NCBI GenBank assembly: GCA_000004985.1
Contig: GG738854.1
DNA from: Naegleria gruberi
Lineage: Eukaryota
Length of the DNA: 64,000 bases
Strand: one strand, 5' to 3'
Both the position numbers and the translations under genes were made by a program. Positions 23,803-25,599 of the stretch are shown here, in pieces. Below the pieces are notes generated by a model. The model searched no databases. It was not told the DNA's origin and saw only the letters and a list, made by a program, of their open reading frames with translations. Positions within the stretch are counted from its first letter, which is position 1; every line of letters starts with the position of its first letter.

Positions 23803-25599
23803 TATCCTCAACATCCATCTTTTTCAGCACTGTTTCCTGATCTCTTGGTTATTGAGAGAAGGGTCATTTCCTCAGCTGCTGTAGGGTGAATTCCAATTGT
23901 ATTATCAAAGTGTTCTTTTGTTGCTCCAGCTCTGTGTAAATTGTGTTAGTTTTAATTTCACAACCCAATTTCTAGAATACTTACTTGATGGCAACAGCAA
24001 TTCCTTGAGTTATTTCGCCAGCATTAGCTCCAACATAGTGGAATCCAATAACCTTTTCATTGGCTGATTTTAGAGTAATGATTTTCATGAAAGTCTTGTT
24101 GGTATCTCTGTGAGATAATTGATGTTCTATTGGAGAATAAAGTGAAATGTACACTTCAATATCATCTTCGCCATATCTTTGGACAGCTTCCTCTTCAGAA
24201 AGTCCACAACATCCATATTCATAAGGGTGAGTGAATATCGACGTTGGAACATTGTCGTAATCCATTAATTCGGTACCCTTGTTGGTCAATCGACTGGCTA
24301 ATAATTTACCAGCCCTAATTGCAACAGGTGTGAGTTCAGTTTTTTTCTATTTTTCCAATTAATTATAATTCAAGTATTCCATAAACCTACATTAATACAA
24401 TCTCCAATGGCATAGATATGCTTCTTTGATGTTTGTTCATTGTCAGAGACGATAATTTTTCCACTTTCGTCCATATCCAAATCAATATTCAACTCCTTAG
24501 TGACAGCTCTCCTTCCAACTGCAAACATGATGGTTTTGTAATTTTCAGTATAAACTTGTTGAGTGGAAAGATCCTTATAATGAACTGTATATTCGCCTGT
24601 TGTTTCGTGGTCTGAAGATTTTTCAATTTTCACTGGAATGCACTGTTCCAAGAATTTTACACCTCTTTCTTTCATTCCATCCACAACTTTCCAGGCACAC
24701 TCCTGGTCGAATCCTCTCAATGGAATGGAACGCATCATGACACTACTCTCATATCCTAATCCTTTGAGGAAACTTGCAGTTTCTAGGGCAATGTATGAAG
24801 CTCCAATCACGAGAGTTTTTCCAGGTTCTTCCTTCAATGAAAATATATCATCTGAAGTGATTGCATACTCTGTAGCGCCTGGAACGTCTTGTGGAATATT
24901 TGGTGTTCCACCAACACTCAAAATAATCACCTTTCCACTAATAGTTTTTGTAATTCCCTTCCTAGGATCAGTCAATTCCAACGTATGATCATCCACAAAT
25001 CTTCCCTTCATATTCAAATAATATAATTTCTTTAAAGATGGATCTTCATTATCAAATGCATAGGTTTGAGTCACACTGGTTCTATATCCAAAATTCAATG
25101 ACTTGATATATTGCTGTACATTTGCAACAAGTGTTTTCCAATCATGTTTTCCACTCAATTTTCCTTCCTGCTTTCCATCATTCCATCCAAAATATTCAGC
25201 ATCATGATTAATTCCCTCTCCAATCAATGCCGAATTATGCATCAATTTCTTTGGAATACATCCAACATTAACACATGTTCCACCTAATTGCCACATCCAT
25301 CCATTCAACTTTCCATTTCTTTCTCTCAACCATTGAGAAGAAGGATCCCGATAATCTAATAAACAAATTCTAGTTTCCTTCGATGATAAACTTGATAATT
25401 GCTTGGAGAGAGAAAGCCCGCCAGAACCTCCTCCAATCACAATGTAATCAAAATGGGCGGGAATTTCTTGTTTGTTGGTTGCGCCTCCTAAATTCATACC
25501 AAAATTACGATGTAACAAATTGCTTTGCTTCTTCGGAAGAGTTTGCGATTTGCCAATGAAAATTTGCGAGAGCTTCCGCCCAGTTTGATGTCGAAGCAT
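23803..25599 (-). CDS. TXNRD: High-Mr thioredoxin reductase (pyridine nucleotide-disulfide oxidoreductase class I), selenoprotein form: three exons, C-terminus GC-U-G with Sec encoded by in-frame TGA at 23809-23811
   Basis: Exon 1 (25599..~24390) carries an N-terminal presequence-like extension, the FAD-binding motif IVIGGGSGG and the redox motif [13 protein letters not shown]. Exon 2 (~24346..~23985) has the interface motifs [10 protein letters not shown] and [23 protein letters not shown]. Exon 3 (~23931..23803) encodes [47 protein letters not shown], matching the human TrxR C-terminus TIGIHP...TKRSG...GCUG. The introns are about 24347..24389 and 23932..23984. Confidence 0.85.

Follow-up and report, generated by a model that had tools for sequence, protein, structure and literature searches.

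The DNA analysed here is a 64,000-nucleotide stretch of contig GG738854.1 from Naegleria gruberi (assembly GCA_000004985.1), which we refer to in its full length as the window. Its minus strand carries a three-exon gene, NAEGRDRAFT_31574, whose product is, judged by its sequence, a large (animal-type) thioredoxin reductase (TrxR) or an enzyme of the thioredoxin glutathione reductase (TGR) type. The reading frame closes with the codons GGA-TGT-TGA-GGA-TAA, in which the in-frame TGA is the penultimate codon, and this TGA is predicted to encode selenocysteine (Sec) within a C-terminal Gly-Cys-Sec-Gly motif. The 3′ untranslated region (UTR) is only ~165–190 nt long and holds two structured elements: a hairpin directly behind the UGA and, further downstream, a candidate selenocysteine insertion sequence (SECIS).

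A large thioredoxin reductase with a penultimate TGA

In exon 3, the Gly-Cys dipeptide (Cys codon at 23813–23811) is followed by the TGA at 23810–23808, a glycine codon (GGA, 23807–23805), and the stop codon TAA (23804–23802). This Gly-Cys-TGA-Gly-stop arrangement had been recognized in the original prediction, a reading of the DNA by a model without database searches, but the TGA was placed one base too high, at 23809–23811. By our own estimate from base composition, a GGN codon and then a stop would be expected directly after a TGA in ~0.2% of cases. The identical GC-TGA-G-stop tail occurs in 23 other loci, comprising 13 metagenome or metatranscriptome relatives and 10 further loci, and 75 of 120 database homologues end at ...GC, where gene callers have cut them. 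The TGA therefore occupies the canonical Sec position. Two insect homologues, P0022 and P0029, carry a ...SCCS tail with Cys in place of Sec. We predict that the TGA at 23810–23808 is a selenocysteine codon, at a position that homologues fill with either Sec or Cys. A tRNA scan of the 64-kb window returned no tRNA gene.

The assignment to the animal-type family is supported by profiles and alignments. The spliced product scores 560.7 bits against the TIGR01438 profile (cutoff 475.85) and covers profile positions 2–485 of 485, and it contains the Pfam domains Pyr_redox_2 (PF07992, 9.8e-44), Pyr_redox (PF00070), and Pyr_redox_dim (PF02852, 2.8e-28). The GGGSGG FAD-binding motif (25434–25417) and the redox-active CVNVGC (residues 109–114, 25275–25258) are encoded in exon 1, and HPTAAEE, which holds the HPT..E His/Glu dyad (residues 539–545, 23888–23868), is encoded in exon 3. 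In alignments to the PDB, the closest solved relatives are Schistosoma TGR and rat and human TrxR1, with E-values of ~1e-137 to 1e-141 over ~520 residues; these alignments extend through the terminal GC(C/U)G to the last residue. Both the profile match and the alignment to rat and human TrxR1 bear out the animal-type identity that had been read from the sequence by eye.

With the high-Mr Sec-TrxR/TGR enzymes of animal type, such as rat and human TrxR1, Schistosoma TGR, and Acanthamoeba TrxR-L, the Naegleria protein shares the domain order, the N-terminal CVNVGC redox centre, the HPT..E dyad, and the C-terminal Gly-Cys-Sec(UGA)-Gly-stop followed by a 3′UTR SECIS, the last of these being a candidate in Naegleria. 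It differs from them in ~10 extra residues near the first FAD-binding segment and in a possible basic N-terminal extension of 34 residues. Its 3′UTR is very short, with the core of the candidate SECIS ~95 nt from the UGA, unlike Acanthamoeba, in which the TrxR-L SECIS lies 282–355 nt after the stop (PMC8038987). The relatives that we found are at most 54% identical in a protein homology search and at most 60% in a metagenome scan. The homology search was word-indexed and missed the query's own deposited protein, and a "no match" from it is not evidence of absence.

Exon 1 (25599–24391), exon 2 (24346–23985), and the coding part of exon 3 (23931–23802), all on the minus strand, join in frame to 1701 nt. 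The FAD/NADPH domain ends within exon 2, which also encodes the greater part of the dimerisation domain, and exon 3 encodes the His/Glu dyad and the C-terminal tail. Intron 1 (24390–24347) spans 44 nt, reads GTAGGT...ATAG, and interrupts the frame in phase 0; intron 2 (23984–23932) spans 53 nt, reads GTAAGT..ACTAAC..CACAG, and lies in phase 2. The locus is deposited as XP_002680287.1 (also EFC47543.1 and D2V6C0), a "predicted protein" of 530 aa that exactly matches the spliced product from Met35 (25497) to ...DGC and uses the same two introns. Because the sequences are identical, both introns are independently confirmed, among them the in-frame GTAAGT...CACAG intron by which exon 3 was originally said to be reached. 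The deposited protein ends at the TGA and therefore lacks the last two residues, Sec-Gly. The public N. gruberi entry is still uncorrected, which constitutes an annotation gap. A neighbouring open reading frame, too, is 100% identical to a protein of N. gruberi.

At the other end of the gene, the first in-frame ATG, at 25599, adds 34 residues ahead of the deposited start (region 25497–25599, minus strand). With seven K/R and no D/E residues, this extension has a composition typical of a presequence, and it could represent a mitochondrial presequence or an alternative start. In the original prediction it was taken to suggest an organellar isoform, but the public entry begins at Met35. The ATG lies only ~78 nt from the stop codon of the upstream gene, and ~35 nt upstream of it there is an upstream open reading frame of two codons (ATG AAG TAA). 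The neighbouring gene NAEGRDRAFT_64383 (25678–26283, minus strand) has no Pfam domain. It shares its cluster with a single 208-aa sequence, taken from a catalogue of marine eukaryote transcripts (ERR1712137), a match that hints at the presence of Naegleria-like organisms in that sample.

The title of da Silva 2013 covers the Sec biosynthesis and insertion machinery of N. gruberi. Leitsch et al. (PMC8038987) cite this study for a large Naegleria TrxR with a UGA and a SECIS. The existence of such a Sec enzyme in Naegleria is therefore already published, and the core of the finding is a rediscovery combined with an annotation gap. In N. gruberi, SPS2 also occurs in fused form (Mariotti et al. 2015, PMC4561486). 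Together with the 23 other GC-TGA-G-stop loci, these literature accounts support the Sec-TrxR reading put forward originally. The accession XP_002680287.1 is unmentioned in the literature that we searched. New here are the hairpin close to the UGA and the observation that such stems recur in other Sec-TrxR mRNAs, and it is this part that is worth following up.

A candidate SECIS in overlapping 3′ ends

The TrxR gene faces a convergent EF-hand gene, whose last exon occupies 23404–23604 on the plus strand and ends, as originally stated, at 23604 (stop codon 23602–23604). A SECIS had been expected within the ~200-nt UTR that overlaps the 3′ end of this gene, and a single SECIS-type element, although atypical, is indeed found there: a candidate type-2 SECIS at 23731–23640 (minus strand), the only candidate in the TrxR 3′ region. 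Its helix I would be formed by AUUGAAAU plus UGAAAU (23731–23718) pairing with AUUUCA (23658–23653) and AUUUCAAU (23647–23640), with CAAUA between these two segments on the 3′ side. The core would set G-UGA-C (23713–23709) opposite U-GA-C (23668–23665), followed by a helix II composed of GUUAUC/GACAAC plus GAC/GUC, an unpaired AAA (23695–23693), and a GUAC/GUAC mini-stem with a CAAA loop (23692–23681). The ATGA motifs suggested earlier as possible cores are present at 23719–23716 and 23700–23697, but they are unlikely to serve as such: neither gives an acceptable helix II with any downstream GA, and the core of the candidate is the GUGA at 23713–23710.

The 3′ region was scanned with our own SECISearch-style detector, whose criteria are an (A/G)UGA...GA core, a helix II folded under constraint with an unpaired AA 10–14 nt in, and a helix I duplex. 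Controls were other Sec-TrxR loci in two sets, a first set of 12 loci whose sequence extends past the stop into the UTR and hold-out loci that were obtained after the hairpin idea had formed. The detector recovered clear elements in most controls and in every hold-out locus for which sufficient UTR sequence was at hand. On the Naegleria TrxR UTR, the detector returned exactly one candidate, with a score of −14.7. This score was matched by four of 1000 dinucleotide shuffles of the UTR (996 beaten; p ~0.004) and by none of 1000 when the segment of the hairpin was excluded from the shuffled UTR. Unconstrained minimum free energy (MFE) folding of the 102-nt domain gave the same SECIS architecture (z = −2.4). 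Scans requiring the strict MFE fold or an ungapped helix, extended to 22600, returned this one candidate only, plus long-span artefacts inside the convergent gene, and relaxed scans to 22600 found no further SECIS-like element.

The control elements place the candidate in a wider context. SECIS elements of AT-rich control loci score near the Naegleria value (L081, −17.3; L085, −16.2; L088, −16.5), and GUGA cores are also present in L010, L084, and L086. L089, a polyadenylated transcript of 34% GC, has the same layout: its mini-stem is capped by CAAA, and an AAUAAA lies at the element's base, followed by the poly(A) tail. L089 was ruled out as a Naegleria relative (53% protein identity, UTRs unalignable). 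A MAFFT alignment of the control SECIS elements lost register at the 3′ cores. Like the eukaryotic type-2 SECIS described by RF00031 and the SECISearch consensus, the candidate has a helix I, an internal loop, an (A/G)UGA...GA quartet, an unpaired AAA 14 nt after the core, and a mini-stem with a 4-nt apical loop, and it is placed in the 3′UTR in sense orientation. It departs from that model in having GUGA in place of AUGA, in its interrupted helix II, and in falling below any reportable Rfam threshold. We consider the element at 23731–23640 likely to be the TrxR SECIS.

The candidate also sits where two transcripts meet. A probable TrxR poly(A) signal, AAUAAA at 23642–23637 (minus strand), overlaps the 3′ base of helix I, and the AATAAA of the convergent EF-hand gene (23656–23661, plus strand) lies inside the 3′ half of the element. 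Given the two signals, a tail-to-tail overlap of the TrxR and EF-hand mRNAs is probable; it would span tens of nucleotides, part of the SECIS candidate included. The end of the EF-hand reading frame is also covered by a sub-threshold Rfam match to the C/D-box snoRNA snoR32_R81 (23526–23614, plus strand; 27.4 bits where the gathering score is 45; E = 0.14), which is probably due to chance. Elsewhere in the window, the best detector scores fall at 12586 (minus), 21715 (plus), 41827 (plus), and 24674 (minus), at −27 to −17.6 kcal/mol. We treated these SECIS-like patterns as false positives; those at 12586 and 24674 lie inside long open reading frames, the latter in TrxR exon 1.

Stems directly downstream of the predicted Sec codon

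The second structured element of the UTR, absent from the original prediction, is a hairpin at 23800–23767 (minus strand) that starts 7 nt after the UGA, behind the spacer GGAUAAU. Its perfect 15-bp stem is formed by CUCUAUCACUGCUAU and GUAGUGGUGAUGGAG, contains four G·U pairs, and is closed by a UAAU loop. The folding energy is −20.5 kcal/mol (z = −5.8; equalled by none of 200 shuffles), which ranks first among the 31,980 40-nt segments taken from both strands of the window, where the next best segment reaches −16.8 and the background −3.5 ± 2.5 kcal/mol. Because of the four G·U pairs, the hairpin is confined to the sense RNA, and the antisense strand folds at only −8.2 kcal/mol; for the same reason, it was missed by a DNA-level inverted-repeat search. 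We considered whether it belongs to a repeat family or is a general 3′-end element and rejected both ideas, as the other top-ranking hairpins of the window lie within coding regions and are unrelated in sequence. Rfam gives a weak mir-1306 match on the hairpin (E = 5.7).

A stem whose 5′ arm begins 6–14 nt after the Sec-UGA is present in 21 of the 23 control Sec-TrxR loci, corresponding to ~11 of 13 independent lineages. In the first set, L001, L010, and L012–L014 form local hairpins, with the UGA-proximal segment in the top 0.6–1.4% of its own locus. A different geometry is found in L004, L005, L008, L009, and L015, where a conserved box 7 nt after the UGA pairs over 12–15 bp (−19 to −27 kcal/mol) with a partner 62–425 nt downstream, and substitutions between these loci keep the pairing. 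L007 forms a significant long-range stem from the same position. Among the hold-out loci, local hairpins in L081, L085, and L088 rank in the top 0.5–0.7% of their own locus and those in L089, L090, and L091 at ~2% (up to 2.3%). Weaker hairpins occur in L086 (3.6%) and L087 (6.8%; box test p = 0.015), and L084 has a long-range stem (p < 0.005). Between the relatives L081 and L088, a G-C pair is exchanged for A-U by compensatory change and the stem differs in length, with both versions perfectly paired. In the marine transcripts of the L004 group, the box after the stop reads CCC[GA]CU[AG]UCAUCU and pairs with a conserved AGAUGAUAGUGGGG(A)UAAACCC at very variable distances; this partner element contains AUGA.

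The loops of the analogous hairpins are not conserved (UAAU, UCGU, GUAAU, CUU, and others), and each control mRNA with a UGA-proximal stem has, further downstream, a canonical SECIS of its own. The stem would therefore seem to be an accessory structure rather than a protein-specific site or a SECIS. By the same two features, the TrxR hairpins differ from the bacterial-type, SelB-binding SECIS, in that they have no conserved apical loop and are accompanied in the controls by a separate SECIS.

Closer parallels are found among known recoding stimulators. The stem-loop SL1 of the SelS mRNA is found 9 nt behind a UGA that is also penultimate, and it stimulates Sec insertion only from a position near that codon (PMC3628699). 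The selenocysteine redefinition element (SRE) of SEPN1 has a geometry that agrees with the spacing of the UGA-proximal TrxR stem (reviewed in PMC8704476). Like the Naegleria hairpin, the SREs of SEPN1 and SELENOT and the SL1 of SelS are stable stem-loops beginning 6–9 nt 3′ of the Sec-UGA. SelS shares with TrxR a penultimate Sec, which is why SL1 lies in the 3′UTR. The Naegleria hairpin differs from typical SREs in being a perfect 15-bp helix and stronger, and the TrxR stems as a group differ from SRE and SL1 in being long-range in some lineages.

By analogy with these elements, we read the Naegleria hairpin as an SRE- or SelS-SL1-like recoding enhancer. A more general proposal, which we make tentatively, is that the UGA-proximal stem may be a widespread, so far undescribed accessory recoding element of TrxR mRNAs in protists and some animals, of which the 15-bp Naegleria hairpin would be a very clear case. 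It is likewise conceivable, at a strength well short of a conclusion, that such an element would act in the manner of the SEPN1 SRE and SelS SL1, tipping the balance from termination towards Sec insertion at a UGA that only a single codon separates from the true stop. The literature that we searched contains no account of such an element for TrxR mRNAs; an earlier report may nonetheless exist.

Probable decoding of the UGA and its significance

We favour the reading, to which we assign a probability of roughly 0.85, that the large TrxR of N. gruberi decodes its penultimate UGA as Sec, with the element at 23731–23640 acting as SECIS and the hairpin behind the UGA aiding Sec insertion. Reading of the UGA as selenocysteine would yield the C-terminal Gly-Cys-Sec-Gly redox centre. 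The GUGA/UGA kink-turn core of the SECIS would recruit SBP2 and EFSec with Sec-tRNA. With spacers of mostly 6–9 nt, the stem would stand at the mRNA entry channel of a ribosome that has the UGA in its A site. There it may delay the ribosome or act against termination, to the benefit of Sec insertion, as is thought for the SEPN1 SRE and SelS SL1.

A number of observations weigh against this reading. Measured against the mostly coding background of the window, the SECIS candidate ranks only 40 of 327, and a candidate this good turns up about once per 3 kb of background, equivalent to a ~6% chance per 200 nt. Its helix II has only eight pairs (five plus a mismatch, a 4×2 internal loop, then three), and its AAA is displaced outwards by one position relative to most controls. 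When 601 nt and 109 nt of the 3′ region were searched with Rfam SECIS_1 (RF00031, gathering threshold 35 bits), no match appeared at E ≤ 10, and an Rfam scan of the whole window reported no SECIS family. Among the control Sec-TrxR loci, however, none of 13 reached the gathering score and two of ~7 clear SECIS elements scored 23.5–26.4 bits, and because of this low sensitivity for protist SECIS elements, the silence of Rfam on the Naegleria UTR carries little weight. No UGA-proximal stem was found in L011 of the first control set or in the frog TXNRD2 locus L083 of the hold-out set. For the UGA-proximal stem, the changes that preserve pairing come from control loci outside the Naegleria/Willaertia lineage, and within that lineage both SECIS candidate and hairpin are read from one sequence. 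Finally, the recoding role of the hairpin is drawn from analogy only.

Were the TGA a true stop, the enzyme would end in ...Asp-Gly-Cys and be truncated, inactive, or differently working, and the GGA-TAA behind it would be the fossil of a lost Sec codon. Such a view would agree with the deposited annotation, which ends at the TGA, with the lack of a SECIS call by Rfam, and with the weakness of the candidate by consensus standards. We nevertheless regard it as very improbable, as the Gly-stop after the TGA is kept exactly as in the 23 other Sec-TrxR loci, a SECIS-type element occurs at the place where recoding would require it, and the strongest hairpin of the window begins 7 nt after the TGA. 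N. gruberi is, moreover, reported to have Sec machinery, and lineages that abandon Sec end in Cys tails, as in the ...SCCS of insect P0022 and P0029. Sec might also be inserted with the help of a SECIS other than 23731–23640, either a non-canonical element or the post-stop hairpin itself serving as a bacterial-style UGA-adjacent signal. The atypical helix II of the candidate and its lack of Rfam support leave room for this idea, and no other structure of the UTR comes near the hairpin in significance; in position, the hairpin resembles a bacterial SECIS. Yet the hairpin is fully paired by Watson-Crick and G·U pairs and has no kink-turn (GA/AG) motif, the loops of its analogues are unconserved across lineages, their mRNAs each have a canonical SECIS further downstream, which makes the hairpin an accessory there, and the relaxed scans to 22600 offered no other element. 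We judge this explanation improbable as well.

The remaining alternative concerns the hairpin alone, which could be unrelated to recoding and act as an mRNA stability, 3′-end, or localisation element, as a small-RNA precursor, or as a block on antisense pairing. The reliance on analogy noted above gives this view some room, the mir-1306 match has the look of a generic hairpin precursor, and the transcript of the convergent gene probably overlaps the TrxR UTR. It is harder to reconcile with the recurrence of the stem 6–14 nt after the Sec-UGA across the control lineages, where stem sequences are unrelated and partner distances vary, so that the position relative to the UGA is the sole common feature. 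The spacing further matches that of known recoding stimulators such as SelS SL1 at 9 nt, and the poly(A) signal of the convergent gene (23656–23661) lies ~100 nt short of the hairpin. A role outside recoding is thus unlikely in our view, but it is the alternative that we take most seriously.

For the gene itself, the value of the finding is curatorial: the public entry XP_002680287.1 (D2V6C0) lacks Sec-Gly, the tail to which the enzyme owes its activity, and large Sec-TrxRs of free-living and pathogenic amoebae are under study as drug targets (PMC11459619). Should the UGA-proximal stem prove to be a general enhancer, it would provide selenoprotein gene finders with an extra signal. Its presence might also be part of the reason why some TrxR mRNAs allow Sec insertion only at the natural C-terminal position, a restriction that Turanov 2013 (PMC3737529) ascribed to the SECIS alone. 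As a general enhancer at the penultimate UGA, the stem would bring the selenoprotein family that is most widespread among eukaryotes into the range of SRE/SL1-type elements.

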